A DNA stretch of 64,000 bases from Carpediemonas membranifera BICM (Eukaryota > Protista > Fornicata), in the NCBI GenBank assembly GCA_019828565.1, contig JAHDYR010000069.1:310001-374000 (forward strand), given 5' to 3'. A program made the position numbers and the translations under genes. Shown here piece by piece: positions 16,954-61,694 of this stretch; the stretch's first letter is position 1; each line of letters opens with the position of its first letter. Below the pieces are notes generated by a model, which saw nothing but the letters and a program-made list of their open reading frames with translations, did not search any database and had not been told where the DNA came from.

Positions 16954-17691
16954 ATGCCTTTTGAGAACAAGGAGGGTCAGAACGTCCCCGATGTCACTTT
17001 CATGATCCGTAGAAACAACCAGCTCCTTCCCGTCACCACCGACGAGATCTTTAAGGGCAAGACTGTTGTCGCCTTCTCTCTTCCCGGCGCCTACACTCCC
17101 ACTTGCTCCTCCTCTCACGTGCCCCACTACGAGCAGCTCACTGAAACCTTCAAGCAGAACGGCGTCGACGATGTCGTCTGTTTCTCTGTCAACGACGGCT
17201 TTGTCATGGAGGCCTGGCAGAAGGAGCTCGATGCCCCCAGCGTCACCTTCATCGCTGACGGCAACGGCGATTTCACCAAGGGCATGGGCCTTCTCGTCGA
17301 CAAGAGCGACATCGGCTTCGGCCCCCGCTCCTGGCGCTATTCCATGCTTGTTCGCGACAAGAAGATCGTGAAGATGTTCATCGAGCCCGAGAAGCCCGGC
17401 GACCCCTTCGAGGTCTCTGATGCCCGCACAATGCTCAACTACATCAACCCCAAGGCCGAGCTCCCACACTTCGTCACTGTCTTCGCCCGCGAGGGTTGCC
17501 CCCACTGCATTGCCGCCAAGGCTCTCCTCAAGGAGCGCGGCATCAAGTTCGAGGTGATCAACACCGGCGCTGGCTCTGGTCTGACTGCCCGCACCCTCGA
17601 GGCTGTCTGTGGCAGGTCCACAGTCCCCCAGATCTTCATTGGCAGCAAGCACATTGGCGGCCGCGAGGACCTCGAGAAGTACTTCGCCTAA
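16954..17691 (+). CDS. Hybrid peroxiredoxin 5-glutaredoxin (PGdx type)
   Basis: Prx5 PGAYTPTCS and GFGPRSWRYSM fused through EPEKPGDPFEVSDA to a Grx domain (GCPHC, TVPQIFIG..HIGG). Confidence 0.93.
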   Translation: MPFENKEGQNVPDVTFMIRRNNQLLPVTTDEIFKGKTVVAFSLPGAYTPTCSSSHVPHYEQLTETFKQNGVDDVVCFSVNDGFVMEAWQKELDAPSVTFIADGNGDFTKGMGLLVDKSDIGFGPRSWRYSMLVRDKKIVKMFIEPEKPGDPFEVSDARTMLNYINPKAELPHFVTVFAREGCPHCIAAKALLKERGIKFEVINTGAGSGLTARTLEAVCGRSTVPQIFIGSKHIGGREDLEKYFA

Positions 17692-19506: not shown

Positions 19507-20055
19507 GAGCAGTTTAAAGCCAGTTTTGGACGGATTGCGTGGTTATTTTGGACTGTAAGCTTGATTGAGTCGATAGATTGCGCGGGAATGCCCGAGAATC
19601 TACCAAAGAAATCAAGCCTGGCAAAAATGGAGCAGGAACTCAGACTCTGTAAGCGTTGAGACAGTCGCTCATATGAACTGTTATGGTACGTCAAGGATGT
19701 GTTCAATCGATTCGTCGTTGTTTAAAAGCTAGAGAAGTGATAGGCGCCTGACCTCACACCAAAACCATCAGCGCCGATATCACTGACAGGAGGGAAGTCT
19801 TTCTCTTGTTGCATTTGTCTCGTTGTCTCGTTTTTTAGTCAGTGTTGTCAAGTCAGCCGAGTCGACTCAAAATTACCTCGACATAAGTGGGAGTGGGCAA
19901 GAACCCGCTGGGCCCAGCGCATAAGCACGGGCATCCACTCTTGAATGTCACGTTCATATCTTTCCAGGTTACACTGCGTCACTGCTTGCATAAGGCTGCC
20001 GGATATCAGCCTCGCCAGACCCGATCATATGCTGCATATTAGCCCTCCCGATCGG

Positions 20056-20847
20056 ATGTTCAGCAATGTACCAGCGGTTTCGTATCGTATCTGAACCGCA
20101 AAGACTTTTCTATTTTTAGCTGTGTCTCAAGACCCCGAGTTTGTCTGCAACTACGTAGGCATGCCGGAGGCGAAGGTGATCGAAGCGAGTAAGCGCTTAT
20201 ACAGGGAAGGTTTTGGGATTGTGGAGATCGCCGCGATCCTGAACGTCCCTGTTTCAGCGTTTCGGGCCCAAATGCTCTCAGACGGTGACAAGAGAAGCAA
20301 AAAGTGTTCGAACAAACGAGTTCGAACTAGAAGCTTATCTCTTATCGTTCACGAGGGTAGCCAGGCTTTCATCGACGAAAACTCAGTTGAGATTTCCTCC
20401 ATCACCCCCGCCTACGAGCTTACAGAGACGCTATACGACAGCCTCGGGTCTATCAGCGACGGGGAGGGATTCTCGCCTCTTTCCCAGTCCTCCTACTCGT
20501 ACTCTTGCGGCGACAACACGACAGTCTCTATTGAATACTCCCCCAAGACGACATCTCTCGCACTTGTTACCGCAAACGACTACCAGGACTCGCTCACGAC
20601 TGCTACATTCACTGATGATGAACAGCCCGATTCAGCCTCGGATTTGGTTACTGAATGCCCGTCTGAAGTCGCATACCTCTCCGAGGGCGATGAGGAGCTC
20701 GGCTCACATCAAATTATTGAACCGGTTGGGTCGGTTAAGTCGGTTGGGTCAGGTGAAGACCATGGGAGGATCAGCTGCGATCTCTTTCGGGCGATTCGTC
20801 GGGGCATCAGAGTGGTTGTTGCGGTCGTGTCTGTTCTTACAATTTAA
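20056..20847 (+). CDS. Hypothetical protein (HTH-like N-terminus, acidic middle, hydrophobic C-tail); probable intron 20087-20119
   Basis: ORF 20122-20847 joins ATG 20056 in frame through a 33-nt GTATCT...TTTAG intron. RLYREGFGIVEIAAILNVP resembles a helix-turn-helix. Confidence 0.5.
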
Positions 20848-21067: not shown

Positions 21068-21733
21068 TCACCCCGCGACCATGTTCGGGTCGGCCACTTC
21101 CATCACCGTCAGCTGGCACGGTTCACCACCTCTTGCTGTCACAGTGAACTCAGCATACGGTTGGATCTGGCAGCTGTCGGTTGGATGGTCCAGGTCGAAC
21201 ACGGCTCTCTCTCTCTTAGGCCCATGAGTCGAGTGCGTTTCGACTGTGGCTCGGCCATGGTTGAGGGTGAGGTTGATGAACCTCGGCTCAGTGTTGTCTG
21301 CCCCGCCTACTGCGCTGTCTTCGTATACTACGTCGGCGTCTTCCGTGGAGGGCTGGACAACAAGGATGAAAGTCTTGAACAGTTCGAGTTCGTGCGGTAT
21401 TTCAGTGTAGCTGACACCGTGGGAGTCGCTAATGGACTCAAAGAGGAGCTGCTGGCTGTCGGCGGGCATGCCGTCTCTGCATTGACTGTGGCGGGGCATG
21501 TGCGGAGAACCCGATGACTTTCCGAGGCTATTTGACGACTGGATTTCTTCAGATGATACTCTCTTTGTCTTTCGTTGCCTAATTTGTGGCGTATTTGGCT
21601 TTGGGACCACGCCAACTACAACGCCGTCCGTGCCGTAAACAAAGCGACGCCTGCCTGCTACAGTCTCTCCAGCCAGTCTGTCTATCTTTTTGATGCGCTT
21701 GGATCGTCGTGTAGATGCAGTATTATTTGCCAT
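21068..21733 (-). CDS. Hypothetical protein, possible CENP-C/Mif2-like (basic motif plus C-terminal cupin-like fold)
   Basis: ATG 21733. N-terminal RRSKRIKKIDRLAGETV..RFVYG and C-terminal beta-rich LNHGRATV...DSCQIQPYAEFTVTARGGEPCQLTV. Confidence 0.5.
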   Translation of the reverse strand: MANNTASTRRSKRIKKIDRLAGETVAGRRRFVYGTDGVVVGVVPKPNTPQIRQRKTKRVSSEEIQSSNSLGKSSGSPHMPRHSQCRDGMPADSQQLLFESISDSHGVSYTEIPHELELFKTFILVVQPSTEDADVVYEDSAVGGADNTEPRFINLTLNHGRATVETHSTHGPKRERAVFDLDHPTDSCQIQPYAEFTVTARGGEPCQLTVMEVADPNMVAG

Positions 21734-21784
21734 TAGGCGAAAAACACGCCAACAAGTTCTGTCATAAACTGCGAATAAGGCGAC

Positions 21785-21846
21785 TGAGGTTTCGATACAA
21801 CAAGAGTCTGTTTTACTGCTTGCACTGTGCACTCTATGATACTTCA
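21785..21846. mobile_element. 62-bp TG...CA mini-element (family A, copy 1) with 5-bp TSD GCGAC
   Basis: Near-identical to 49521-49583. Flanked by GCGAC at 21780-21784 and 21847-21851; imperfect terminal inverted repeat TGAGGTTTC / TGAAGTATC. Confidence 0.85.
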
Positions 21847-21927
21847 GCGACGAAAATTGTGCCGACACGGGCACAACCATGCTCTCTTTCCAGGCCATGC
21901 CGTCATAAACCTTGTTTATTATCATCA

Positions 21928-23241
21928 TCAGGGCATGAGGTTGCGCTTGCGGGCCTCAGCGGTGAGGTTGGCGCGATCGTCGGGGTGGGCGATAGCAATC
22001 AGGGCCTTAGCGCGTTCCTCGAGGGACTTGCCCCAGAGCTTGGCGATGCCGTACTCGGTTACGACGTAGTCGATGTCGTAGCGGCCGGTGACGACGCCAG
22101 CGCCCTGCTTGATCCAGGGGACGATGCGGGCCGCGCCCTTCTTGGTGCGGGAGGGCAGGGCGATGATGGGCTTGCCGCCCTCGGACATGGCGGCGCCGCG
22201 CATGAAGTCGAGCTGGCCTCCAACGCCAGAGTGGATACGGGTGCCGATCGAGTCGGCGACAGATTGTCCAGTGAGGTCAACCTCGATGGCTCCGTTGACG
22301 GCGATGACCTTGGGGTTCTGGGCGATGACTCTCGGGTCGTTGGTCCAGTCGACGTTCATCATCATGAGGCCGGGGTGGTCGTTGATCGTCTCGAACAGGC
22401 GGGCCGAGCCGAGGGCGAAGGAGGCGACCATGCGGTTGGGCATGACGGCCTTCTTGGCGTTGTTGATGACGCCCTTCTGCATGAGGTCGACGACGCCCTC
22501 GCTGAGCATCTCAGTGTGGACGCCGAGGTCCTTGTGGCTGGTCAGGAAGCCCATGACAGCGTCAGGGACACCACCGAAGCCGATCTGGAGGGTAGAGCCG
22601 TCCTCGATAAGAGAGGCTACGTTCTTGCCGATAGTCTGCTCAATCTCGCCGCCGGCGCGGGAGGCGTTGCAGTGGAGGGGCATCGCCTCCTCGCAGAGGA
22701 CGTCAACCTCGTCCATGTGGACCGTGGCGTCGCCGAAGGTGCGGGGGAAGTTGGGGTTGATCATGCCGATGACGTGGCGGGAGTGATCCATGGCGACCTT
22801 CGTGGCGATGACGTTCGAGCCGAGGGACATGAAGCCGTGGCGATCGGGCGGGGAGCACTGGATGATGGTCGTGTCGACGGGGAAGTCCTTGCTGCGGATG
22901 AGCTTGGGGATCTGGTGGAGCATGATGGGCGTCATGGTCGCGTGGGGCTGGTTCACCTCGTTGCGGACGTTGTGGGCGACGAACTCGGCGTTCATCTTGA
23001 AGCTCTTGGAGAACTCCTTCTTGGCGTAGTCCGCAGAGCCCTCAGTGTGAACGTGGCACACCTCAACGTTGGAGAGGCTCTCGTGGCGACGAACCATGGC
23101 CTCAACGAGAGGAGTGGGTGTCGCAGAGGTGCCGTGAAGCCAAACACGGGTGTTGGAACGGATTCCCTTGACGGCGGAATCGACAGAGACAAGTTTGGGA
23201 GCCATTGCGATGGAGAAGAACTTCCGTGACTGCGCACGCAT
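21928..23241 (-). CDS. Acetyl-CoA hydrolase/transferase (acetate:succinate CoA-transferase, 4-hydroxybutyrate CoA-transferase-like)
   Basis: SPPDRHGFMSLG, STLQIGFGGVPDAV, DLGVHTEM (catalytic Glu), IEVDLTGQ, SGVGGQLDF, YVVTEYG. Start at 23205 or 23241, or 23317 with an intron. Confidence 0.93.
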   Translation of the reverse strand: MRAQSRKFFSIAMAPKLVSVDSAVKGIRSNTRVWLHGTSATPTPLVEAMVRRHESLSNVEVCHVHTEGSADYAKKEFSKSFKMNAEFVAHNVRNEVNQPHATMTPIMLHQIPKLIRSKDFPVDTTIIQCSPPDRHGFMSLGSNVIATKVAMDHSRHVIGMINPNFPRTFGDATVHMDEVDVLCEEAMPLHCNASRAGGEIEQTIGKNVASLIEDGSTLQIGFGGVPDAVMGFLTSHKDLGVHTEMLSEGVVDLMQKGVINNAKKAVMPNRMVASFALGSARLFETINDHPGLMMMNVDWTNDPRVIAQNPKVIAVNGAIEVDLTGQSVADSIGTRIHSGVGGQLDFMRGAAMSEGGKPIIALPSRTKKGAARIVPWIKQGAGVVTGRYDIDYVVTEYGIAKLWGKSLEERAKALIAIAHPDDRANLTAEARKRNLMP

Positions 23242-35327: not shown

Positions 35328-35449
35328 TGTTGCGCAGTATAAACACAAAAGCCTTATTATCCGCCGGACTGTTGCGCAGTATAAACACATTGTTCGAACC
35401 TCCCAGACAGGGCCTGAAAGGAACGATCAAAGTGCCAAACTGTGCAACA
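35328..35449. repeat. Cluster of family-B mini-element ends directly 3' of Fanzor copy 2
   Basis: TGTTGCGCAGTATAAACACA exact at 35328-35347 and 35370-35389; inverted ACTGTGCAACA at 35439-35449; 35370-35397 matches the reverse complement of 45983-46011 with one indel. Confidence 0.8.
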
Positions 35450-36020
35450 TCATCCGTCCGTAGACGAATGTTGGCGGTTAGCCAATTGATGATACTGGAA
35501 TGATGTTTGAAGACGTGGGATCGATGTGCGACTGAACGGAGAGCCACTGAGCTCATCTTCCGTGGCAAGAGAACGCCACAGGATGTTCTCTGCAGCACTC
35601 TTGTCCCGATGATCAACATTCAGAGCATCAGGAACTGTTGCGCGCCACTGAGCACCACGGCACTGTGGATTTTCGCAGAGCATCACACGATGTGGGTGAA
35701 CGTGCTGGTCATCACGCGGACGAACTCGCTTGTAGGGGGCGTGGCAGTGAGGGCAGACGGCGGTGGTGCGATCCTCGTTAACTATGTTAAGATCGACGAC
35801 AATGTTATACCTCTTGAGAAGGCGTACTATCTCTCTCGCGAACTTTCGATATGGCGCACAAGGAATGAACATACCAGCAGGCGTGGTGAATCCCGAGCTC
35901 CCGTAGAAGACTTTCAGGCGAATGGGGGTGGCGATGGGATGGTGGCGACCGAACTCCCGAGCCAAGTGTTGGCCGCAGCGGGCGAAGTGCTTCTGGCGAA
36001 CTATACAAGTGTAGAAGTGA
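35450..36020 (-). pseudogene. 5'-truncated Fanzor/TnpB-like RuvC remnant
   Basis: RQKHFARCG...VFYGSS...CAPYRKFAR...VNEDRTTAVCPHC...MLCENPQC...HRDKSAAENILW, a clear paralog of 29304-30588. An upstream in-frame stop removes RuvC-I. Confidence 0.85.
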
Positions 36021-36108
36021 ATTTAATGTGGAATAGAAGACAATGAGACGACGTGTGAGTTCTTGAGTTCTTCATAGCACAAGCTTTCATGCACTATCCT
36101 GCGTAAAC

Positions 36109-42007: not shown

Positions 42008-45000
42008 TTAAGCGAGCTTCTCCTTTCCGCTGAGGTCAATGACTCTAGCCGGGTCGAATTCCATCAATATCTCCTCGTCCATCGCCGTAGACTCGCCCTG
42101 CAGGAGTCTGGCCGTCACCTCGCCCAGCCCGGGGGCCATCATGAAACCGTGGCCCGAGAGCCCGACGATGTGGGCGAGCCCGTTGATGTGGCTGTCCCAA
42201 CCGACGTACGGGTTGCCGTCAGCCGACTGCGGGTAGAGCCCGCGCCACACCCGTCGGACGTGGATGGGGCCGAGGCGGGGCAGCAGTGTGAGCATGCGCT
42301 GGGCGACAGCAGGAAGGAAGGACGACGTCTCCTGGGTCGCCCAGCCCTTCACGGGCGGGTCGGGCGTGGCGCAGAAGACAATTTGACCCAGAGAGTTCTG
42401 GTAGAAGTAGTAAGAAGACGTGCCAGTCTCGGGCGAGGGCGTGTTGTCGATGACCATGGGCGAGAACAGGCCCCCGTGGACGGGTTCAGTGATGCCGGCC
42501 TCGTGGGAGTCGGGGACCATCGCCAGCTGACACTCGTCGGGCAGAATGAGGTTGGCGTTGGCGCCCAGGCAGTTGACGACGACGGGGGCGAGGTAGCGCT
42601 CGTTGTTGGCGGTGAGAACACCGACGACGTGCTTCTCGTCGTCCACGAGGATCTTGGCGACTGGCGTGTTGAAGATGAACTCGACGCCCTCAGCTTCATT
42701 GGCCACGCGGTGGGCGCTGGCTGCGAAGAGCAGGGGAGAGCAGCTGCCGTCCGCGGGAGAGTAGAGCCCGCCGAGCAGCTTAGCCACCTTGATGCCGGGG
42801 ACGAGGGCCTGCACCTCCTTGGGCGCGATGAACGCCGTGTCGTAGCCGTAGCTGGCGTGCACGGCGCTCAGATCGCGCAGGGTCTGTTCCTGCTCGGGTG
42901 TGTACGCCACGAAGAGGTAGCCGCCCTGCTTCCACTCGATGTCGTCCTGGGTCTCGAAGCGCCAGCTGCGGAACATCTCGAGGGATCGTTGCATCACGTG
43001 CATCTTGGCCAGTGAGGACATGCAGCCGCGGACACCACCGATGGCGTGCTTGACGTCGCCCTGGCCTGGGCCGGGGTTAATGTCGAGGACGGTAACCCTC
43101 TTCTTGCCCGTCCGCACGTCGTCAGACTTGGAGAGGGCGAGGGCCAGACCCAGACCGACTGCACCAGCCCCGAGGATGACGATGTCCGAGGCGTTCGTCG
43201 TGACGGGCCGCATCCGGTCGACATGGAGCCGCAGGGGGGAGAAGAGGTGGCTGTTGGCGGCCGGGGCGACGGGGTGGGCCTGGGCGGTGGCGAGGGTTGA
43301 GAAGGGGACCTCGACGAATAGGGGCCGCATGGTGGCGGGGGTCACGCGGTCAAAGGGCATGCCCTCAGATGCGAAGATGCGGGGGAGCAGCACGCGGCAG
43401 GTCTTCGAGCCACAGGCTCCCATCCCCGCGCGGGTGATGGCCTTGACGAAGTTCTGGTCCCAAATACCGGCCTCCTTGGCCGTCCGGATCGCGTCCCGCA
43501 GCTCGTGCACGGTGACCCGCTCGCACCGGCAGACGATGGCAGTGTCCTCGAGCGGGACGACGCACGAGGCGCTGCTGACAAGGTGTGGTTTCGGGACAGA
43601 CACCCTGAGCGAGGCGACGGACGGAGCGAGCGTCTTGGGTACCTTAACCCGCACCAGCCTCGTGCCAGGAGCCCCGGGGGCGGGCTGGACGCGCTGGACC
43701 TCCCAGAGACCCTCAGCGTCGTCCGGGTTGTGTACAACATCGCCCAGATCGGACATAAGCTGCACTTTCATGCCTGCAGCCACCTCGGTGCCGGTGGAGT
43801 ACTCAGCGAACAGCTCGTGTGCCATGATGACAGTTGGGTAGTCAGCGTCCTTGCGGGAGTCCACCAGGGTGATTGCCAGGCCGGGACAGAGAGAGACGCA
43901 CTTGAGGCAGCCGCGGCAGGCGTTCTTGAAGCCTTGGTCGACTGCGTACATCGGGATGCCAGTCAGAGAATGGTTCATAAGGCCGATACAGCCGTCAGGG
44001 CAGGAGCTCTCGCACGAGTTGCACGCGATCTCCTGGTTGCAGTGGAAGTACGGCCGGATCGTCCCAGCTTTCACTGGCGGGTGGACCCTGGTGTGCGTCT
44101 TGCCCGGCCGGGACTTAAGCACGGCGATCTTGGCCTCCCACCCGCTGCTGTCGACTGAGGATGTGTCGACCCCGAGGTGCTTGGCGATGTCGAGGGCTGA
44201 GCTTCGGCCGGTAAGCATCGCGGCGGAGGCCTCGGCGATCTCCTTGGCGTCACCAGCGCTGAAGACCGTAAGACCGTACTCCTTGGCCTTGCCGAAGAAC
44301 TCGTCGACGGGGGAGAGTCCGATGGCGACGAGCACGGCGTCCACGTCCACCGTCCGCTTCGTGTCCATCTTCACCTTCCAGTTGTCGTCGAGCTCTGCGA
44401 TGGTGGCCGACCGGACCCGAGACTCGGAGTCCTGGTCGTCAAGGGGGATGACTCCGTGGGAGTCGTGCTCGTTAGCCGCGACGATGGTGTGTCGCGTGAG
44501 GATGGGGACGCCCAGCCGCTTGATGCGGTCAGCGTGGACCTTGAACCCGCCGATCTCCGGCGCCCCTTCGAGCACGGCGACGACTTCGATTCCCGCTTGT
44601 ATAGCCTGGTAGGCGGTGATCACGCCGACGTTTCCTCCCCCAACGACGAGCACTCTTCGGGCAATGCGGGTGAGGTCGCGGTTCATGATTGTCTGGACGG
44701 CCCCGGCGCCGTATACCCCGGGTAGCGCGTTGCCTGCGAACAGGAGCTGTTTCTCGCGGGCTCCTGCGGCAACTAGGAGAGTTTTGGGGCGAACGAGATG
44801 ATACTGGTGCTTCCGGACCACTCCGACGATTCCATCGGAAAACACACCGATAGCGGTCGCCTCAAGCCAGACGTTGATATGTTCGCACTTCTCGAGCTCG
44901 CTCTCAAGTATCTCGGCGATGGTGTAGCCCCTGGTACCTGCGTACGTCTCCTGCTTGGTGCCGAAGAACTTGTGGGTCTGGAGCGAGAGCTTGCCGCCCA

Positions 45001-45580
45001 GCCGGTCCTTGTCGTCGATGAGAACGCACTCGACGCCGAGCTCGTTGAGTTGGATGGCCGCGCTGATGCCAGCCGGCCCCCCGCCGATGATGAGGCAAGT
45101 CGTCTCAACCACGTCAGTCTTTGGCTCAGGCACGTCTACCTCGCTCGAGAGGAGGTTCTTCCCAGAGACAACACGCATGCCCTCTTCTAAGGGGGTGACG
45201 CAGCTCTTTCTCATCCGTCCGTCGATACGAACCAGGCATTGAGAGCACTGGCCATTAACACAGAACGGAGAGAGCGCGCTGTGGTCCTTATGATGGTGGT
45301 CGAGGACGTCAATGCCATTGGCGAGCAGGGCGGTGCTGACAGCCTCCCCCTCGAAGCCCTGAAGCCGCTGAGAGTTAAAGGTGAATGAGACTTGCTTCTT
45401 CTTGGTGCCCTGAACGATTGGGTGGTGTATTATCCGCGATGAACTCCTTGGCGCTGTCCCGAGTGTGTCTTCGATGTCGGGAATACCCGCAGAGCGCCCT
45501 GCACTAGAGCGCTTCCCATGATGAGCATCAAGAGAGTCAATAAGGTTGCTATTGTTCAGCAATTGTTCTTCGGTGGGCAT
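42008..45580 (-). CDS. Fused sarcosine oxidase / dye-linked proline dehydrogenase-like protein (2Fe-2S, FAD/NAD, 2x4Fe-4S, BFD-like 2Fe-2S, DAO)
   Basis: FCVNGQCSQC..KSC; IIGGGPAG; VVGGGNVG; CNQEIACNSCESSCP and CRGCLKCVSLCPG; VCRCE..GMGACGSKTC; ILGAGAVG..WRGLY..GLSGHGFM. Confidence 0.9.
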   Translation of the reverse strand: MPTEEQLLNNSNLIDSLDAHHGKRSSAGRSAGIPDIEDTLGTAPRSSSRIIHHPIVQGTKKKQVSFTFNSQRLQGFEGEAVSTALLANGIDVLDHHHKDHSALSPFCVNGQCSQCLVRIDGRMRKSCVTPLEEGMRVVSGKNLLSSEVDVPEPKTDVVETTCLIIGGGPAGISAAIQLNELGVECVLIDDKDRLGGKLSLQTHKFFGTKQETYAGTRGYTIAEILESELEKCEHINVWLEATAIGVFSDGIVGVVRKHQYHLVRPKTLLVAAGAREKQLLFAGNALPGVYGAGAVQTIMNRDLTRIARRVLVVGGGNVGVITAYQAIQAGIEVVAVLEGAPEIGGFKVHADRIKRLGVPILTRHTIVAANEHDSHGVIPLDDQDSESRVRSATIAELDDNWKVKMDTKRTVDVDAVLVAIGLSPVDEFFGKAKEYGLTVFSAGDAKEIAEASAAMLTGRSSALDIAKHLGVDTSSVDSSGWEAKIAVLKSRPGKTHTRVHPPVKAGTIRPYFHCNQEIACNSCESSCPDGCIGLMNHSLTGIPMYAVDQGFKNACRGCLKCVSLCPGLAITLVDSRKDADYPTVIMAHELFAEYSTGTEVAAGMKVQLMSDLGDVVHNPDDAEGLWEVQRVQPAPGAPGTRLVRVKVPKTLAPSVASLRVSVPKPHLVSSASCVVPLEDTAIVCRCERVTVHELRDAIRTAKEAGIWDQNFVKAITRAGMGACGSKTCRVLLPRIFASEGMPFDRVTPATMRPLFVEVPFSTLATAQAHPVAPAANSHLFSPLRLHVDRMRPVTTNASDIVILGAGAVGLGLALALSKSDDVRTGKKRVTVLDINPGPGQGDVKHAIGGVRGCMSSLAKMHVMQRSLEMFRSWRFETQDDIEWKQGGYLFVAYTPEQEQTLRDLSAVHASYGYDTAFIAPKEVQALVPGIKVAKLLGGLYSPADGSCSPLLFAASAHRVANEAEGVEFIFNTPVAKILVDDEKHVVGVLTANNERYLAPVVVNCLGANANLILPDECQLAMVPDSHEAGITEPVHGGLFSPMVIDNTPSPETGTSSYYFYQNSLGQIVFCATPDPPVKGWATQETSSFLPAVAQRMLTLLPRLGPIHVRRVWRGLYPQSADGNPYVGWDSHINGLAHIVGLSGHGFMMAPGLGEVTARLLQGESTAMDEEILMEFDPARVIDLSGKEKLA

Positions 45581-45967
45581 GCTTCCTGAACCTGCTGGTT
45601 GTTGGCTGACACGTGTTGTGACGTGGATCGCGATTCGCTCCAATTCGCAGGTTAATGCAAATCGCGCTGAGGGCAACTGCCGGGTCTACAACGCCTCAGC
45701 AGGCGCCGGTGACCGCTCCTACTAATATCCCCCCTCCCGCTGACACCGCGGTCGCCCAGACCGTGAACCCGAGTCAGAGTTTGATGTTTGATGTGTCGTC
45801 TCCTCCTCCCGGTGACACAGTGGTGTCGCTCTGGCTGTGGACTTGAGTCAGTCGGACGTGCCGGCCTACATACTTCCTTGCGTTGTATGTAGATGTGGTC
45901 AGTTAGCCTGTTGCTCGGGTGGTTAACAAGGGATAGGGATTATAAAATGACTTTCTGCAAATCGCGT

Positions 45968-46011
45968 TGTGCTATTGAAGGGTCGAACAATGTGTTTTAT
46001 ACTGCGCAACA
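45968..46011. mobile_element. 44-bp TGT...ACA mini-element (family B) with 5-bp TSD CGCGT
   Basis: CGCGT at 45963-45967 and 46012-46016 flank TGTGCTATTG...CTGCGCAACA; homologous to the 35328 and 35370 repeats. Confidence 0.75.
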
Positions 46012-46143
46012 CGCGTATTCAACACCTCGAAGTGGCTGATGCCAGTTGTCAATGGCCGACTGTCTGTGGCTCCGCTGGGACAGCACCACAGCCATCACCT
46101 AACCCGCCAATCACCATGCAATGCAGTTTATCCACCCCACGCC

Positions 46144-47160
46144 TTACTTCCCCGCTTGCCTGGTCCTGCTCTGCCCCGTGATGTCCGCGGCGATCTTGTC
46201 GAGCCGGGCCTCTCCTTCAGCCAGCATAAGCCCCATCCTCGCCTCAAACTCGGCGATGGTCGTCCCTGCTTCCGCTGGGAGGTCGTCACCAATACTTTCT
46301 TCTTCTTCGTCTTCCTCGACCGCGTTGTCACCACTTGACGCAACATCCCTTGGGTCTCTCCCATTGTACAGAATCAACCCGGGCAGAGTCTTCAAGACCT
46401 GGGCAATGAAGTCTGGGCTATCAGCGTTCTTATTCCCGCTGAGATTGAGGAAAAGAAGAGTGTCAGAGAGCTGAGTGAGGTCCACAGAGGCTGGATCGAG
46501 GCAATCTAGGCGATTATCCGTAGCAAGGAGGGTCTGCAGGTGCTCCATTCCCCCAAGCTTACCTGTTATCGACGTGAGTTTGTTCTGGGAAACATCCAGA
46601 TGCCTGATGCTATTCAGGGACTCGATGCTGTCCAGCGTAGTGAGTTCGTTGAACTGGAGGTTGACTGTCCGCGCCTCACTGCATACCTCTATGCCTGACA
46701 GAGTGATCAGACCGCATCTGTCGAGATTCAACCGTTCGAGCTTGAATAGCTTCGTGACAAGCAGTTCTTGTTCCTCCTCGGTTGGTGAGCCTGGAGAGGC
46801 TGACTTGGGTGCTGGCTTGGCACCGCGAGAGGCCGCTGAGCCTGTGGCCGAGCCTGCAGGGCGTTTGGTGGGCGCTGGAGTCGGTTTGGCCGGGGCTCTG
46901 GAGGAGATGGGCTGGCGTGTCGCTGATGGCCGTGTGCCGGCTACCGGCTTCCTCGCTGTAGTTGATCTGGCAGTAGTTGCTGCCCCAACTGCTTTTTTAG
47001 CGCCAGGAGCTGGCCTGGCAGCGGGTTTCGTACCAGGTCCAGATGCTGCCTTTGGCGCCTGTTTACGGACAGGTGCAGGTTCAGCAGGCATGCATTTCTC
47101 TTTCAAAAGTTGAATGGTTACTCTAGTTTCGCTCTTATCCTCTCTGATTTCAGGATTCAT
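46144..47160 (-). CDS. SDS22-like leucine-rich repeat protein (LRRC46-like)
   Basis: LERLNLDRCGL, VNLQFNEL, LDVSQNKL, LNLSGN..VLKTLPGLILYNG cap; ATG 47160. Confidence 0.75.
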   Translation of the reverse strand: MNPEIREDKSETRVTIQLLKEKCMPAEPAPVRKQAPKAASGPGTKPAARPAPGAKKAVGAATTARSTTARKPVAGTRPSATRQPISSRAPAKPTPAPTKRPAGSATGSAASRGAKPAPKSASPGSPTEEEQELLVTKLFKLERLNLDRCGLITLSGIEVCSEARTVNLQFNELTTLDSIESLNSIRHLDVSQNKLTSITGKLGGMEHLQTLLATDNRLDCLDPASVDLTQLSDTLLFLNLSGNKNADSPDFIAQVLKTLPGLILYNGRDPRDVASSGDNAVEEDEEEESIGDDLPAEAGTTIAEFEARMGLMLAEGEARLDKIAADITGQSRTRQAGK

Positions 47161-47302
47161 CGCATATAGGAAACAGTGCAGTTTATTTCTGAAACTCGTA
47201 ACTCGAGTCAGAAGAATGCTAGCTGTCCCAGGAGACGCCTGATGCGATACTAGGTTGCATAGGAAATGATTGAGGTGAGACGGGTTAAAGTGCACAACGA
47301 CG

Positions 47303-48937
47303 ATGGAGCTTATTGGCGAGATCCAAACGGGACAGAGCGAAGTACTCTTCCCGGTATGCGCTCCACATATGGATCTATTGGCATTTATCACCAAGCACGG
47401 TGAGAGCTATTTTCTTTCGATCTATCGATCCACTGACCAAGAGCGCATTATTGACAGGCGCATCTCGAAAGATGCTGAGCCATCTGCACTTATATGGGCT
47501 TCTTCTGGCCAGTCGGTAGTTATTGGCTTCGAGGACGGCACCATTTGCCAAGTGGACATCCAATCTGTCGACACGACCATCGAGCCGCTCAAGGCTGTTG
47601 ACGGGCCTGTAAGCCAGCTCGCATGGATCGAAATGAAGCCTCCTACTGTCATTGTTCTCTCCGAGTTCGGCTCAGTCGCCATTGTGCTGGGATGCAGTCG
47701 AATTTTCAGCCAAACCGACCTGCCAACGCTCATTGGATCAGAGTTCCTGGCCGCCACGGAGAGCTCGATCATTGCCAGGTGCGGCCCGGCTATCCTGGAG
47801 GTAGACTTGTCCGCCGTGCCCAAGACCGGCTCGGCGGGCCCGATTATTCACCGAAGAGCAACCGCGGCGAGGAGCATTGGAAAGAGGATGGCCGAGACTC
47901 TGGAGCACAGCATGAAGTTGGTCCAGGGGGTCAATGAATCTATAATGTCAGTGTTCACAGCACTCGATAAAGATTCGGCACCTCTGCCGGATCAGATCCT
48001 CGATCTAGCCACCACCGGCCCCCGAAACCCAACCACGGAGCAATTCATCGCCAAGGACCTCATCCCAAGCCGGTGCGAGCGGCTGGCGGAGACTGTCGAT
48101 CCGATCCTCCGCGCCCTGGCCGACAGCATCGCCCACACGATCCCCCAGGCGACGGCCATCAGCGGCATGGTCGGTGAGGCGGCTGCTGCTGCTTCAGCCG
48201 AGTCTGGGGCGAGTCAACAGGCCCTGAGCGGGGCAGACGGGCTCGTGCGGTCGACTATGGTCGTCTCCCAGTTGACTGCTTCATTCGCCCGGTCAGTGTG
48301 CGAAGTTTGCCGATTTATCGCGGATCTTCCGTTCATGTATATCGAGTCCACGGTAGCGGCCAAGGAGTCCCGGGACTGGACCCCCTCTGTTGTCTACCAG
48401 TTCTTCCTCCACGACGGTTACGAATCTGTTTTCAAGAGCTTACTCGAGTCTGGAGATTTCGTCCAGGGCAAATATTCCGGATTGTTCGGGGATGCACTTG
48501 CTTACATCGCGACGAGTCCGGTTCCTCTGTATCGCGCCATCGAGGGTCTGGCCGACACTTTCAACTCATATTTCGACTCAATCCCGAAATCCGGACTTGG
48601 GCTGAGAGTATCTAAGATCTCCAGTGTATCTGAAGATTCGCACGTGATAGTTTCCGACAACTCCATGACAACTGTTTCCGGCACTTCAGTTCATATGCCG
48701 GAATGCCAGGCCACTCTGCCGAGTCCCGCCACTCTTGTCGGTCCAATCGGATCAGATTCTATCGTAGCCATCCTTGACAGCGGCCGCATTGTCACCGTCA
48801 ATGAGGACGGCGACGTGTCTCCCGTCGACCTCGAGGGCATCGAGGTCACTGCCGTGGCAGGGCTGGTCACCTCAGCGGGCAGGGGACTTGCTGCTGTGGT
48901 CGCCAAGGGCCGTGTGGTGATGCTGGAGGCCGAGTGA
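47303..48937 (+). CDS. APC4: Anaphase-promoting complex subunit 4-like
   Basis: ANAPC4-type N-terminus CAPHMDLLAF...SALIWASSGQSVVIGFEDG..VDIQS, helical middle, C-terminal propeller strands (SAGRGLAAV). Confidence 0.65.
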   Translation: MELIGEIQTGQSEVLFPVCAPHMDLLAFITKHGESYFLSIYRSTDQERIIDRRISKDAEPSALIWASSGQSVVIGFEDGTICQVDIQSVDTTIEPLKAVDGPVSQLAWIEMKPPTVIVLSEFGSVAIVLGCSRIFSQTDLPTLIGSEFLAATESSIIARCGPAILEVDLSAVPKTGSAGPIIHRRATAARSIGKRMAETLEHSMKLVQGVNESIMSVFTALDKDSAPLPDQILDLATTGPRNPTTEQFIAKDLIPSRCERLAETVDPILRALADSIAHTIPQATAISGMVGEAAAAASAESGASQQALSGADGLVRSTMVVSQLTASFARSVCEVCRFIADLPFMYIESTVAAKESRDWTPSVVYQFFLHDGYESVFKSLLESGDFVQGKYSGLFGDALAYIATSPVPLYRAIEGLADTFNSYFDSIPKSGLGLRVSKISSVSEDSHVIVSDNSMTTVSGTSVHMPECQATLPSPATLVGPIGSDSIVAILDSGRIVTVNEDGDVSPVDLEGIEVTAVAGLVTSAGRGLAAVVAKGRVVMLEAE

Positions 48938-49035
48938 GCCGCTCGTATTTGAGACCATAGACTTGACATAAATTTTTACCGATTCCTCGCCCAGTTGTCC
49001 TGCAGCTCCATGTTTACGATAATATGCCTCCGCGC

Positions 49036-49473
49036 TCACTGCTCCTCATACCACTCCGCCTCGTCATCAATGACCCTCGTACGTCGCCCCACTCTACTCA
49101 GCAACTCCTCTCGGAACTCGATCGCGGCGCCTCGGCTCTTGGTGCTCGTACGGTAGGACTGGTCCTTCACTAGGGCTGGAGGCTCACCGGGGCCTGGCAT
49201 GGGGGCACTGCAAAACAGGCAGGGGCCGCTGACCCAGCCGTTGTTCGTCTGGCCAGTGCAGCAGACAAGGCCGCAGTTGCAGCACATGGCGATCTCCTCC
49301 GTATTCCCTATGTGAACAAGATCGTGCTTCGTCCCGTTGCAGTTGCAGTAGTGCTTGCCATGAGTCTCAACGCTCATAGCTTGGACCTCAGCAATCGACA
49401 TCTTGGTTGTGTGATCATAATCAAATGTACCCTCTATTTGTGTCTTCTTGAACTTCTTCCGCTTCGATCCCAT
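49036..49473 (-). CDS. TRIP4: TRIP4/ASC-1/Rqt4-like C2HC5 zinc-finger protein
   Basis: CNCNGTKH...CCNCGLVCC...GPCLFC and C-terminal RTRVIDDEAEWY. Confidence 0.8.
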   Translation of the reverse strand: MGSKRKKFKKTQIEGTFDYDHTTKMSIAEVQAMSVETHGKHYCNCNGTKHDLVHIGNTEEIAMCCNCGLVCCTGQTNNGWVSGPCLFCSAPMPGPGEPPALVKDQSYRTSTKSRGAAIEFREELLSRVGRRTRVIDDEAEWYEEQ

Positions 49474-49520
49474 CGTTTTCTCCACTCTCGTTTGGTGATA
49501 TAAACTGCACTTTGCGAGAT

Positions 49521-49583
49521 TGAGGTCTCGATACAACAAGAGTCCTACTTTACTGCTTGCACTGTGCACTCTATGATACTTCA
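49521..49583. mobile_element. 63-bp TG...CA mini-element (family A, copy 2) with 5-bp TSD GAGAT
   Basis: GAGAT at 49516-49520 and 49584-49588; differs from copy 1 by 3 substitutions and 1 indel. Confidence 0.85.
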
Positions 49584-49677
49584 GAGATGCTATCCCCACA
49601 CTTGCCGCACTCTCCAAGCTCCCAGCGCCCCGAACAGTATTTATACACATCCATACATACAATAAACTCCCCGGCCC

Positions 49678-51069
49678 TCATTCGGCGGGGATGCTCTGAG
49701 CCGGCTCCTGCGGCACGGCGGGGTACACGAGCTCGTTACGGCCGCCCTCCCGTCCTGGCTGGCCGAAGGGGTTGGTCTCCGGACTGGGGTTGGCTGTCCA
49801 GTCGACGTGGAACTCGGTATCCGCGGATGTGGCGAACCCCTCGGCGTCCTGGGCTGTGGGGCTCTTGACCGGTGTGCTGTAGTAGTCGATGTCGCCCGCC
49901 TTGTCGGAGGCGTGACCAGAGTCGCTGTCCGAGTCGCTGATGTGTTCCTCGGAGACTGATGAGGCAGAGCTTCCGGCCTCGAGGTCCTCACGGCTCTCGA
50001 GCTGCTTCTTCTTCTTTTCTTCCTTGAGGACACGGTCGATTTGGAACTTGACGACAAGACTCGCCCCAATCGCCATGACGATGGAGAAGACCACGCCTAT
50101 GACCATGATGGCTGTTTGGATAACACCGCCGTCCGTGAGATTGCCGGAGATGACCTTGGCGAGAGAAGAGGCCGTGCTGCCGAAGTAGACGTAGAACGAC
50201 TCCTCGGGGAGCAGGACAGTGGCCGTGGCGAGGAGGAAGTGCCAGTACTTGACGCCAGAGACCGAGAGCATGTACGTGACGAGGACGATGGGCAGGAGCG
50301 GGCACAGGCGCAGCATGATCGCAATCTTGAAGCTGGAGCGCTTCACAGCAGTCTCGAGTGCGTGGAAGAACTTGTTGTCCTTGAACTTCTTGCGCATGGA
50401 ACGTGCAAGAACGTAACGGGCAAGGAAGAAAGAGCCGGACGAGCCGATGATGTGGGAGATGTGACCGGCGATGATACCCTTCCAGAAGCCGAGCAGGAAG
50501 CCAGCGAAGGTGAGGGTGAACGTGGGCGGGATGGAGACAAAACAGGTAGCGATCTGGAAGAAAAAGAAGAAAAATGGTGCCCACCAGCCAAGGCTCTGGA
50601 TGAATCCGAACACAGCCTCCCACACACTCGAAGGGATGAGATAAAAGCCGAGCAAAACGGCGCCCACAACAAGGAGGATGAGGATACCCTTGCATATGGT
50701 CTTGGGGTTGGTAAGTACGCGGATCCAGTGCTTCTTCTTGGTGATGTGCTCCACTGTGTCCAGGTCGTACTCTTCAATGAGGTTTGCTGCGCCCGCAAGC
50801 CTGAGCGCGACGTCCCCAGTGGTGTCGACAACAAGCTGGCTCGCTTCAGCGGTTGGATCGGTGCCGTCATCGCCATGTACAATGCCTCTAGAGATTCGCA
50901 TCAGGGTTTCAAGCCGCTGGAGATGAGGCAGGGAAGGCAAAGAACGGTGACTGTTCAAATTCAGCCTCGTTTCCGCCTGATCCGCGTCGTCTTCGAGCGG
51001 TGAGTCCAATGACCTATGTATTTCCATCGGATCAGGCTTATTAGCAACCACGGAGTCGTTATCTGACAT
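49678..51069 (-). CDS. TVP38: TVP38/TMEM64 (VTT/DedA, SNARE-associated) membrane protein
   Basis: Multiple TM helices; AGFLLGFWKG, GSSGSFFLARY, MLRLCPLLP, YVYFGS. Confidence 0.85.
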   Translation of the reverse strand: MSDNDSVVANKPDPMEIHRSLDSPLEDDADQAETRLNLNSHRSLPSLPHLQRLETLMRISRGIVHGDDGTDPTAEASQLVVDTTGDVALRLAGAANLIEEYDLDTVEHITKKKHWIRVLTNPKTICKGILILLVVGAVLLGFYLIPSSVWEAVFGFIQSLGWWAPFFFFFFQIATCFVSIPPTFTLTFAGFLLGFWKGIIAGHISHIIGSSGSFFLARYVLARSMRKKFKDNKFFHALETAVKRSSFKIAIMLRLCPLLPIVLVTYMLSVSGVKYWHFLLATATVLLPEESFYVYFGSTASSLAKVISGNLTDGGVIQTAIMVIGVVFSIVMAIGASLVVKFQIDRVLKEEKKKKQLESREDLEAGSSASSVSEEHISDSDSDSGHASDKAGDIDYYSTPVKSPTAQDAEGFATSADTEFHVDWTANPSPETNPFGQPGREGGRNELVYPAVPQEPAQSIPAE

Positions 51070-51477
51070 TCTTCGCGGACCTCTTTCGCAGCCGGCTCAA
51101 AAAGCGGCACAGAAATATCTCGCGAGATATAGACCACAAGATGATCTTGACATGACTGTGGTCGCTAGTGCCTCCGGAAACTGAAGTTGGGTGTGCAGTT
51201 TCTCCGTCTCTTTGGAAGAATAGGGGATGTCCGGAGCCGATGTGATAACAGTCGAATGAAGTGCCATTCAGTTGGCCCGGTGAGGGGCAGACCAATGCAT
51301 TCGGAGTCCACCATTGAGTGTTCGAAACGCTCAAACTCGGAGAAGTCTGGGCATGGTGGCCGTACAGCCCGAATATACGGCTGACCGGCATGTAGCGTCA
51401 TGCACAGCAGGACTGGTTTGCCGTAGGGGGGGCAGGTCTTCAGCGTAACTCCGCTGACAGTCACATGGAAAGAACGA

Positions 51478-53103
51478 ATGACAAATCTCCCAACAGATGA
51501 TGCGTTGTGCAGCGCTTATTCCGCACCATTGGGCACTGAGCAAGCGCTTATGGCTGCATTCCATCTTTCGGTCCTCGCAGCCGCCTCTGTTCCCGGGGAC
51601 ATCCCTTCTCTCATCCGCCACGCCTATTCCAGGCACTTCAACAAGGTACTGCCGGTAGAGCGCGATTCAGAGATCAACGGTGCTTCGGGAAGCACCACTG
51701 AACTCGAATCCCTGCAAGTGATGCTCTCGAGAATTCCCCCTCTGAAACCAGCCGCACAAGTCCTCCTTGATCGCGCCCTCTCCATCCTCACAGACGGCCC
51801 TCATCTGTCCATGAACGTCGAGCTCGCAGATGGCGAGGATTTCCCGGTCGCCCTGCACACGCTGAACCAGGGCGCGGTGTGAGCGTGTCTGATGGGTGGC
51901 GAGGCCAACCCCGACCTCGAGGACAGGGTGCTGAAGGAGGCTCGAGAGAAACGGCCATATGATATTGAGATGCATAACAAGATTCGCAACGCGCTCACCC
52001 CCGAGGCCAAGTGCCTCTGGTTCCTCTGCCGACAGTTTTCTTCTCCTGGAACGTCGCCGATAAGGACGGCGAGAGCTATCAGTACAACAGATACTATACA
52101 TGCCACCACCACCGCATGTACATGGGCCGACTCTTCATGCTCGACACTGACAACCACACCGCCCTCACCAGGGCCAGGATGCCCAGGGCCCTCGAGGTCT
52201 ACAGCAACTGGACCACCCACGTCGCCAGGACGCCCAAGGGTCTGTGGGGCTGGGGTGATAGCGGATATGGTCAGCTGGGGTTCATCGTCAAATAGGTTCG
52301 TCGACCCGACCCGCCTCACCTTCCCCGCCTGTCCCAGGGTCGCCGAGCTCGAGGCCAGTCTGCCCGCCTGGGAGAAGCACAGGATGGTGACTGATGTGAC
52401 GATTGCTGGCAGAGAGACGCTCATACTCACCCCAGTCGGCACTGTCATCAGTGGCTACAAGGCTGTTTTGTTTGCAGGCCGTGTCGAGGAGAAAAGCACA
52501 GCTTTCACCCAGTCGCTGTGCCGCCTGGCTTTGTCCCAGATCACATTATGTATGATGGCGACACTGTCATCTCACCATGGGCGATCGGCAGATTATCAGC
52601 GGAAGCAACCAGTATGGCCAGCTGGGGCTCGGGCACAAGGATATGATGGAAGGGTTCGAGGAGCTGCCCTTCAGGGTCGACCGGATAATTTTATCTCTCC
52701 CTGATTTTTTAACATCTTCCTCCGCGGCCGCCAGCTGCTCTTCACAGGCCAAGTTTCCAATTATATCGTCAAGTCCAGCCTGCTGCCAGGATATTTCGTG
52801 TTCGATCGCTGCCTCACACCCACCCCGCTCCAGTTCCCAGCGAGGGTCAAGGGGCTGTTATGGGGGGATTCTAGGCTGCTCTGGGTGAGCGAGGGCGTCA
52901 CCCACTCCTGCCACGAAGATGGCAACGCCGAAGTCCCTATTGAGGCGACTGCATACAATGATCGCCACTACTGCCTCCGCGACTCTGCCGGCCAGTGGTT
53001 CGAGGTTGATGACTCCGATGTGGGAACTAGCATCGTCCAGTGCGAGACGCTTAGTTGGTCGGAGGTGATCACTAGAGTCGACGTCGACCCGTGGGGCCAG
53101 TAA
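51478..53103 (+). pseudogene. Disrupted RCC1-like repeat family gene (paralog of 61695-63449)
   Basis: Shares LSMN...DGED.P..LHTL.QG, AKCLWFLC, GRLF, F.ACP.V...E..LP.W.K and G.N..GQLGLGH with the paralog. In-frame TGA at 51880 where the paralog has Trp; frameshifts near 52040, 52290, 52510, 52700. Confidence 0.8.
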
Positions 53104-53479
53104 AGCTGATAAATTTCCTCTGGCAGTGAGTGCCTCAACCAGCCGGTTAGGCGATAGTTTCGGTTGGTATCGCGGATATCGATGTGACCGATGCAGCTAG
53201 CGGTCGGGATTTCGTCCTTTTGACTCAACCCAAATGCGAGGAAGGCGGACATATTAAGGCACAGCACCAATGAGGCTTGCCTTACCACCAGCCATCGGCC
53301 CAATCCACCAGGGCAATCACCCAGTCATGGCAGTGATCATACTCTGCTGGGTCCCGATGTGTCGGTGCTGGATCGGTGAAGCGCTAAACGTCGACGCCTG
53401 GCTGAGCACGTATTGTTCATCATGATAGAAGAACTCATTTATCTGGTGGAAACTGCCAGGTCATCCGGCATATCCAGCA

Positions 53480-53917
53480 CTACAACCCAATGCTCTCAGC
53501 TGAGGCGCGCTCAGTGCTCCCTGACAGCAAGTCCCGCGTCCACTCGGACACCGTCTTTGCCGACCGATGGCCAGAGAACTTATCAATCCTGCCATCGTGG
53601 AAGAGAAGTACAGAGGGCACCCCGGTAAGTCGGAATTGATTGATTGCAGGCTTGTTCGCGGGCTTCTTGACGTTCACTGAGAGTACGATGACCTTCTCCG
53701 TCTGCTCGGAGTTCAAGAGCATCGCTTCGAGATCTGGGATCTCGGGCATCCACTGGATACAGAACCGGCAGCTTGTTGAATGGAAAGTGACCAGTGTGGC
53801 CGCTGAGCTCGGCTGATTCGTGATGAAGGACGTAAGCTCTTCAAACGTGACATCATCGGCAGCAATAACAACATGAATGAGCAAAACTACTACTAAAAGG
53901 CTCACTGGAAGCTTCAT
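53480..53917 (-). CDS. Secretory single-domain thioredoxin/PDI-like protein
   Basis: Signal peptide MKLPVSLLVVVLLIHVVIA; TFHSTSCRFC (CxxC); cis-Pro GVPSV; FSGHRS. Confidence 0.8.
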   Translation of the reverse strand: MKLPVSLLVVVLLIHVVIAADDVTFEELTSFITNQPSSAATLVTFHSTSCRFCIQWMPEIPDLEAMLLNSEQTEKVIVLSVNVKKPANKPAINQFRLTGVPSVLLFHDGRIDKFSGHRSAKTVSEWTRDLLSGSTERASAESIGL

Positions 53918-54408
53918 TGCACTATTCAATCTGTCAACGTCGAATTCGCCATGTCAAAGAGCAGTGTGTCGAGCAGCTTATGACACACAGTTGCTCCGAC
54001 GGAACTGAGCTCGAATCAGCCAGGCAGATGCCCAATACGTCATGGTAGGCGCAATTCTGAGCAGTGCGAGCTTGGTCACGGGTGATGTCTGAGCACCAAA
54101 ATAGGGACGGTTTGAGGATTGCCCTGGCCTGACAAGCATGATGGTATTTGATTGGTCGACTCGTGGGCTGGCCCTGAGCTGCTATAAGTTTTTAAAGCAC
54201 AATTACTCTGGATGGTTCAAGTGGCGTTGAAAAGGAGAATCGACTCAAGCCAGAGACCGAGCCGATCGCAGGGAAGCGGTGCTGGGTAGTTTTGACGTTT
54301 CCCTGTGTTTGGCTGGCTTCACGAAATGGCGCAATCTTGAGATTTGATTGGTCATTTGATGAGCGCGCGTTTTGCAATTGTCGGCGCGCCAGAACGAAAA
54401 CCACCAAT

Positions 54409-55482
54409 ATGCAAGGAAACGTAGAATCAGCGAAAGGACGCATGCAACTGATCGAGAATATCATCCGCCACAAGGCTGGAAACTGGGAGGCCATCTGCAG
54501 CGGCCTTACCACCAAAGCACAAAGGTATCTCACCAGCCAGGAGGCCAAGATCATCTACAAGAGCACTGCGCGCACTCTAGCTTCTCAGATAAGGCCACAC
54601 TGCGGCCAATTTGTCCCCGACCACCACAACCGCGCGCATTGCTTCATCATCCTCCGCGAGTTCCGCCACACGCTTGTCGAGTTCAAGCGGTCGGGCCTGA
54701 AGAAGTACACCGTCAACCTCGCGTTCTCCACTGCGCCTGAGGGCCAGGAGATGCTTCAGCGCATCGCCGACCGCGTCTCGGATGTGCTCAAACAGCTCAA
54801 CATCGCCAACAGGGACAAGGCCGCCATGGAGTCCCGCACCATGCGCCCCATCGAGCCGGCGACACCCATCCGCGCCATCGACACTGGTGCGGTCATGGGC
54901 CGGGGCCTGATGACGCCCCTCACCCCGGGCACCGCGACGCCCAGCACGCGTCCCTCCAGCCCTGCCGAATGCGATTTCAGAGTGCGGCTGGAGCCTAGAC
55001 GCGGCGCCGAGTCGAAGGCAGCCCAGTTTGTCCGGAATTGCAGAGCTACAGTCGAGCCCCGCTTCGCGATCCCCGCGAGCATGCTGTCGACAAACGTGTG
55101 CCAGCTTGTCTCCCACCTGCGGTCCAGGTGGACCCGCGAGTGCAAGGCGGGCGACGCAGCCGCCAACTCCTCCGTGCTCGCCACGCTGCCGCTTCAAATC
55201 TTCCCAACTGTCGGCTCCGCTAGCCTTGCCGAGGAGGATGGCTTGACCATCGCCGACGCGCTCGAGTCTGACCGCATCAGCGTGGCGTACAACTCGACGA
55301 ACACGCGCGCCGTCATCACGCTCTTCTACGAGCTGCCGCACGTGCCTGCCCTCGAGCCCAGTGCCGTCCCCGCCCCTGTGGATCTGGCCAGCATACTCCT
55401 GGACGACAGCGTGGCCGACTTCAACTCCTCCCAGGAGGCCGAGCTCCCTTTCGAGCCCCTTTCCCTCTCTTTCGATTTTTAA
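54409..55482 (+). CDS. Possible Cramped/CRAMP1/TKI1-like chromatin protein
   Basis: SANT-like GNWEAI...EAKIIYKS; VRLEPR...EPRF...VCQLVSHLRSRW resembles the CRAMP1/TKI1 second domain. Confidence 0.5.
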   Translation: MQGNVESAKGRMQLIENIIRHKAGNWEAICSGLTTKAQRYLTSQEAKIIYKSTARTLASQIRPHCGQFVPDHHNRAHCFIILREFRHTLVEFKRSGLKKYTVNLAFSTAPEGQEMLQRIADRVSDVLKQLNIANRDKAAMESRTMRPIEPATPIRAIDTGAVMGRGLMTPLTPGTATPSTRPSSPAECDFRVRLEPRRGAESKAAQFVRNCRATVEPRFAIPASMLSTNVCQLVSHLRSRWTRECKAGDAAANSSVLATLPLQIFPTVGSASLAEEDGLTIADALESDRISVAYNSTNTRAVITLFYELPHVPALEPSAVPAPVDLASILLDDSVADFNSSQEAELPFEPLSLSFDF

Positions 55483-55622
55483 ACACATTTACTCAAGTAT
55501 CGTACCGCAGGGCTCGCGTGGCTGACCCGACGGGTGCTTTTTCTCAAGTCAGTCTGGCATTTCGTGCAAATTTAGCAAAGAATGACAAGAGATTTCGTCG
55601 TATGACACCCGATTGAGCATTC

Positions 55623-61650: not shown

Positions 61651-61694
61651 ATTTAAGGGAATATTTAAGGGGTGTATATAAATAAATACATCGT

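Follow-up and report, generated by a model that had tools for sequence, protein, structure and literature searches.

Results

Two near-identical copies of a 62–63-bp unit lie in the window, by which we mean the whole 64,000-nt stretch of Carpediemonas membranifera DNA analysed here. Both sit between tandem minus-strand genes, in gaps that measure 194 and 204 bp with the insertion included. Re-alignment reproduced the coordinates of the initial annotation and its count of three substitutions and one indel: the copies are identical at 59 of 63 positions (3 substitutions, 1 gap) and share one orientation. BLAST returned no third copy within the window, where the remaining matches are at most 13 nt long, and the earlier remark that only two copies are visible holds for this stretch. 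The two sites comprise the following features.

21068–21733, minus strand: host gene neighbouring copy 1, 221 aa, without a Pfam family
21760, minus strand: mRNA 5′ end of this gene, where contigs stop with a non-templated tag (runs X3 and X4, one sample)
21765–21772, plus strand: host motif TAAACTGC, site 1, ending 12 nt before the element
21780–21784, plus strand: left 5-bp target duplication of copy 1, GCGAC
21785–21846, minus strand (from the inferred LTR sense): element copy 1, 62 bp, TG..CA, 7 of 9 terminal bases inverted
21817–21846, minus strand: 30-nt end common to a longer element, with the palindrome TGCAC-T-GTGCA; it adjoins a purine tract in other copies
21847–21851, plus strand: right 5-bp target duplication of copy 1, GCGAC
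49036–49473, minus strand: host gene neighbouring copy 2, 145 aa, zf-C2HC5; its 5′ end is probably near 49499
49501–49508, plus strand: host motif TAAACTGC, site 2, occupied by copy 2
49516–49520, plus strand: left 5-bp target duplication of copy 2, GAGAT
49521–49583, minus strand: element copy 2, 63 bp, of the same type as a third copy in run X1
49584–49588, plus strand: right 5-bp target duplication of copy 2, GAGAT

The unit is mobile DNA whose insertion created a 5-bp target duplication, and the two copies are independent insertions. Both have TG..CA ends (TGA..TCA in full, with the termini TGAGG/TGAAG) and an imperfect inverted repeat of 9 nt in which 7 of 9 bases agree. Their duplications have a length known both from LTR elements (4–6 bp) and from Ginger2/Tdd (4–5 bp). 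By itself, a TG..CA stretch with a 5-bp flanking repeat is common, with 35 such stretches of 40–120 bp in the window. The duplications here are nonetheless not a chance pattern, because in both copies they coincide exactly with the borders of homology, for which simple arithmetic gives a probability of about 1e-6. The independence claimed at the outset is likewise upheld, since each copy has its own, different duplication at exactly these borders.

The element lies outside coding sequence. Proteins beginning at the ATGs at 21733 and 49473 have exact, full-letter matches in the protein database, which places both insertions upstream of the genes; the duplications start 47 nt (copy 1) and 43 nt (copy 2) from these ATGs. 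The initial annotation's figure of about 50 bp upstream of the ATG is therefore right for both copies, but the motif beside them is not confined to that position and also occurs just behind stop codons. Two minus-strand open reading frames (21068–21928 and 49036–49650) span the element; a coding reading was rejected on the frameshift between the copies and on the downstream starts of the database proteins. An intron reading was also rejected: GT..AG is present on the minus strand of copy 1, but the AG is absent from copy 2. Among the surrounding genes, the acetyl-CoA hydrolase neighbour matches a Carpediemonas membranifera protein at 100% identity.

Both insertions stand at the same distance from a short sequence in the flanking DNA. 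As first described, ATAAACTGC begins at 21764 and 49500 and is followed at both sites, in one orientation, by 7 nt, the 5-bp repeat and the element. Two random non-coding flanks of 25 nt share an in-register run of 9 nt with a probability of 6e-5 (2,000,000 draws). Its 8-nt core TAAACTGC also occurs elsewhere in the window, and four of the sites that carry no element are given here.

19509–19516, minus strand: unoccupied motif that follows a stop codon within a few nt
46123–46130, minus strand: unoccupied motif that follows a stop codon at 14 nt
47178–47185, minus strand: unoccupied motif between divergent genes
63469–63484, plus strand: motif and palindrome TGCACTGTGCA, unoccupied; the ATG of an RCC1-like gene is 20 nt away

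TAAACTGC is a genuine motif of the host that lies close to gene starts and stops. The window contains nine occurrences against an expected 0.72 ± 0.79, a count reached by none of 100 shuffles. With the two defining sites set aside, four of seven occurrences are non-coding (p = 0.03), as are six of ten for the shorter form TAAACTG (p = 0.005). Four of 12 TAAACTG sites fall in coding sequence, and all eight intergenic ones lie 4–91 nt from a start codon (5) or a stop codon (3), in either orientation. This placement at gene borders is weak evidence when taken alone, because intergenic gaps here are short. The look-alike TGCACTGTGCA that the initial annotation placed at 63474–63484 is indeed present there.

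Contigs from five public sequencing runs (X1–X5, at most two samples) extend the picture beyond the window. X1–X4 were compared with 21640–21990, and X1, X3, X4 and X5 with 44200–64000; rows from X1 and X2 are near-identical. X1 was treated as RNA-like because of its spliced GT..AG joints, and depth was not used as copy number. Counts of flanks, junctions and loose ends based on contigs are lower bounds. Among the contigs listed, none spans the junctions of the two window copies and none shows an empty site, a result that says nothing for or against insertion.

The motif, rather than the transcription start, looks like the anchor of insertion. Contigs place the mRNA 5′ end of the copy-1 neighbour gene at 21760, and that of the copy-2 neighbour probably near 49499, to judge from 23 unmatched letters of a contig. 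Relative to these ends the duplication occupies −20 to −24 in copy 1 and about −17 to −21 in copy 2, roughly 3 nt apart, while the offset from the motif is constant. Among the junctions listed, mRNA 5′ ends recognisable by a non-templated tag are at 21760, 53967 and 58476; a one-mismatch motif lies just upstream of the start at 53967, and the start at 58476 has none. A trans-spliced leader was rejected as the source of the tag, since all three junctions follow C and not AG. The tag, which may resemble a library adaptor, is more likely a library tag at the cap site. The short transcript whose tagged 5′ end is at 58476 (58476–58750, plus strand) overlaps with its end the 3′ end of a minus-strand CN-hydrolase gene.

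A third short copy, which had no part in defining the motif, repeats the spacing to within one base. It is carried by a 1391-nt contig (X1/X2) and has copy 2's three substitutions and one gap relative to copy 1. Its loose end reads TAAACTGC, 12 letters, then C in place of the first T of the window copies, so that on the minus strand the copy ends in CG instead of CA; this first base is either mutated (offset 12) or lost (offset 13), and the duplication is outside view. We estimate the chance of such an agreement, with one base of slack, at about 5e-4, from four motif sites in 24,836 non-coding positions, with the two defining sites excluded and coding sequences listed by hand. This contig also aligns with the RCC1-like gene of the window for 54 letters or more (joint 49522/63002). 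The flank is accordingly host DNA, and we infer that the copy sits at the 3′ end of a gene, an RCC1-like paralogue oriented toward the element. Its end, C-G-TGG on the minus strand, could instead represent an LTR followed by a primer site, with TGG after the end both here and in a second, 44-bp family; the RCC1 match argues for host DNA.

Taken over the three copies, the motif-to-element offset is 12 nt exactly in the two window copies and within one base in the third (n = 3), the motif having been defined from two of the three motif-side junctions. All three copies also share the same orientation, which is not significant (p = 0.25).

The contigs support a dispersed element family. At least four flanks absent from the window follow the element's last base, which together with the two window copies makes at least six different junctions. 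Before 21817 and 49554, a different continuation appears in all five runs and extends for 190–391 letters in X3–X5, so the last 30 nt of the short element also belong to a longer one. X5 contains a further form with 38 shared nt, possibly a still shorter version or else one more long type.

One flank of the shared end has the layout of a 3′ LTR. Behind the element, a loose end seen in X1, X2 and X5 (at least 255 letters in X5) consists of 28 pyrimidines in 30 bases on the plus strand; on the minus strand the same flank has 26 purines in 27 bases, in a run that ends 3 nt before TG. None of 127,947 27-mers in the window contains 25 or more purines. A purine tract directly before TG is how a 3′ LTR is arranged, which suggests an LTR origin for the unit and a minus-strand reading direction. 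The purine-tract contig has a depth of 750 out of about 2,780 summed over the X1 junction contigs (about a quarter, as depth and not as copy number) and could be one expressed host flank. The tract is linked only to the shared 30 nt and not to the short form, and the contigs listed include no short LTR accompanied by a purine tract as well as a primer site.

A second tiny family occupies the same window. At 45968–46011 a 44-bp TG..CA element lies between two CGCGT repeats and contains TATACTGC. Many contigs carry it with loose ends; at least nine in X1 share a 1-base deletion, and one has a loose end whose minus strand, CA-G-TGG, is laid out like a primer-binding site. TAAACTGC is absent at 12 nt from this element on either side. 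Two tandem starts of the 44-bp family's end occur within 35328–35449 (at 35328 and 35370), the first of them behind a purine-rich run. The stretch 35370–35449 has inverted ends matching at 11 of 13 bases, has no 5-bp duplication and lies right behind the stop codon of a Fanzor-like open reading frame. That frame (35450–36022, minus strand) is a C-terminal TnpB/Fanzor-like remnant (Pfam Cas12f1-like_TNB, E 0.0025, under the cut-off); seven clusters of longer C. membranifera proteins (35 members, 83–94% identity) mark it as part of an expanded family. A unit of about 35 bp at 45665–45701 has perfect 7-bp inverted ends around TGAGG..CCTCA and is repeated elsewhere (loose ends in X4). Its left flank has CAAATCGCG in common with the left flank of the 44-bp element, and no duplication was found around it.

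Other parts of the window hold further repeated and unusual sequences. A multi-copy non-coding stretch with a GC-rich hairpin (60278–60360) lies upstream of a kinase gene; copies in X1, X3, X4 and X5 differ at 5–11 positions, and the stretch has no convincing Rfam match (best E 0.74). The kinase gene itself has very short introns of 35, 29 and 29 nt (60604–60638, 60721 and 60873). A broken RCC1-like region at 51478–52885 has many related contigs and belongs to an expanded family. Bacterial-type proteins in this eukaryote include a PocR-sensor histidine kinase with a receiver (55623–57818) and a peroxiredoxin–glutaredoxin fusion (16954–17691). An open reading frame of 228 aa at 20161–20847 has a weak match to Pfam RavZ_cat (E 0.0095, under the cut-off).

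Discussion

The explanation that we favour, at slightly less than even odds (about 0.48), is that the 62–63-bp unit is a very short solo LTR of an LTR retrotransposon, placed 12 bases from TAAACTGC by an integrase tethered to a motif-bound host protein. An autonomous partner would supply the reverse transcriptase and integrase that copy a short-LTR (TRIM/SMART-like) subfamily. The integrase, held by the host factor on the motif, would cut 7 and 12 nt from it, and such a cut at fixed distance would disrupt neither the motif nor the transcription start. The two short LTRs would then recombine and leave a single LTR between the duplications.

Parts of this scheme were proposed in the initial annotation and have fared unevenly. 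A host factor that positions the integrase at the motif gains from the fixed offset, to which the third copy adds an out-of-sample case, and from the motif being the host's own; neither the factor nor the integrase was found. The annotation named a solo LTR or a MITE without choosing, and the purine tract next to the shared end now leans the evidence toward an LTR, with a MITE as the less probable reading. None of 136 partly overlapping Pfam scans of window open reading frames matched a reverse transcriptase, an integrase or a DDE transposase, and no two-LTR element lies within the window. An atlas search with a candidate element protein at 54409–55479 gave no lead, its best score (0.84) being under the threshold. 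Exact-pattern scans of metagenome, genome and viral contigs gave no loci, a result that is uninformative either way for a eukaryotic element. Against a solo LTR count the ratios reported for grasses, where short LTRs rarely give solo LTRs (complete to solo 3.4:1 to 50:1; PMC3281118, as far as that source was available), since both window copies are single.

A MITE would be an internal-deletion derivative of a Tdd/Ginger2-like DNA transposon, with the long form as its parent's end and the targeting by the motif unchanged. We consider this unlikely, while giving it real weight. Single units with duplications would then arise without recombination, the termini are inverted repeats at 7 of 9 bases, and many different flanks follow the shared end. 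According to the available parts of the sources, TDD-4/5 produce 5-bp duplications (PMC2836005) and TG..CA DNA transposons of the IS481EU group are present in metamonads (PMC10045372). Ginger2/Tdd elements have TG..CA ends and an integrase-type transposase, but their termini read TGTNR and their terminal inverted repeats measure tens of bases, 45–297 bp in Ginger2 (PMC2836005, in part), whereas the ends here are TGA and the inverted repeat falls far below that range; the duplication length does agree. IS481EU elements have TNT..AYA ends and duplications of about 4, 15 or 25 bp (PMC10045372, in part), unlike the TGA..TCA ends and 5-bp duplication found here. The purine tract at the shared end, unmatched in the window, also speaks against a DNA transposon.

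A host tether would be unneeded if an element-encoded protein read the motif itself, as TnsD of Tn7 reads its target site, or if the integrase bound a host look-alike of its own end sites. The offset is exact in both window copies, within the element lie TTTACTGC and TGCACTGTGCA, which resemble the host motif and its flank at 63469–63484, and the 44-bp family carries its TATACTGC. Yet the motif is over-represented, and is located at gene borders, independently of insertions, as a host factor's site would be. Tf1/2 LTRs also carry the site of the host factor that targets them (PMC5371812, in part), so an internal look-alike does not favour self-recognition, which we regard as rather improbable. 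That insertions merely survive in short open intergenic DNA, with the fixed offset a coincidence of small numbers, has in its favour that n = 3, that the motif was chosen post hoc and that the third junction is one base off or mutated; set against the in-register 9-nt match (6e-5) and the out-of-sample third copy (about 5e-4), it is very improbable. Hardly credible, and largely refuted, is a duplicated small RNA gene or spliced-leader cassette. In RNA-like runs the 30-nt end is plentiful and adjoins many sequences, but it has no fixed leader end, because it runs on into 190–391 further shared letters and the next letter varies. The Rfam search suggested in the initial annotation as a check for such a gene returned no match, nor is there a tRNA, and leaves the insertion reading unrefuted. 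All six folds are no better than shuffles (z −0.12 to 0.74), and the 5-bp duplications differ between copies.

The tethered-integrase reading has close counterparts in known systems, the sources cited here having been available in part. In S. pombe, Tf1 insertions are concentrated at −9 and +19 relative to the Sap1 motif at promoters of Pol II genes (PMC5741268), and a Sap1 site that acts as a fork barrier lies in the Tf1/2 LTR (PMC5371812). The Carpediemonas insertions resemble these in keeping a constant distance to a host motif at the borders of protein genes (n = 3). They differ in using a single 12-nt offset in three of three copies (the third within one base), in a motif of 8 nt instead of 21 bp, in a 62-bp unit instead of a full element, and in belonging to an unrelated lineage. 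Single-base targeting beside a host-factor motif at Pol II gene borders is thus already described for Tf1/Sap1, and this is no new kind of system. Position-specific integration into safe sites of gene-dense genomes is also known for Ty3 of yeast (about 15 bp) and DGLT-A of Dictyostelium (13–18 bp) (PMC6101501). These target tRNA genes through TFIIIB/TFIIIC, whereas the motif here marks protein-gene borders, the neighbours are protein genes, and no tRNA gene or Rfam RNA lies within the window as a Pol III target.

In size the units fall below the published examples. SMARTs are the shortest elements according to PMC10886601, and the smallest solo LTRs given in the available part of PMC3281118, those of the SMART/TRIM element FRetro129, are rare and measure 79–87 bp; that part knows of no means by which solo LTRs are amplified. 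Like FRetro129, the Carpediemonas element is a very short single unit with TG..CA ends and a 5-bp duplication; unlike it, the unit is only 62–63 bp long (44 bp in the second family) and would be targeted base-precisely to a motif, a feature unreported in that part of the source. Further context comes from TRIM solo LTRs (PMC4558846, in part) and from LTR elements in the fornicate Hexamita inflata (PMC11787283, in part). Word searches for this element in the available text of PMC8516963 (with supplements and preprint), PMC11316075, PMC5874029, 10.64898/2026.05.21.726589 and PMC4558846 returned nothing. The literature searched held no published description in Carpediemonas; it did not include a second paper, to which the repeat data went according to the review file of the genome paper.

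A bolder version of the preferred reading seems to us improbable. Single-LTR micro-elements of 44–63 bp would move alone as one-repeat units, cut and placed base-exactly from the gene-border motif by a retrotransposon integrase; the motif would mark a Sap1-like fork-barrier or boundary factor, and the insertions would map fork stalls. Carpediemonas is reportedly a eukaryote without an origin recognition complex. Its replication machinery is described as unusual (10.1101/2021.03.14.435266, in part).

If the arrangement holds genome-wide, base-precise integration beside a protein-gene-border motif, a phenomenon worked out mainly in fission yeast, would have arisen independently in a metamonad, and the units involved would be smaller than the 79–87-bp solo LTRs in the available part of PMC3281118. 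If the integrase is steered by a host DNA-binding protein, genes would be spared in a crowded genome. TAAACTGC is, in addition, a candidate cis-regulatory motif in an organism whose regulatory sequences are hardly annotated.
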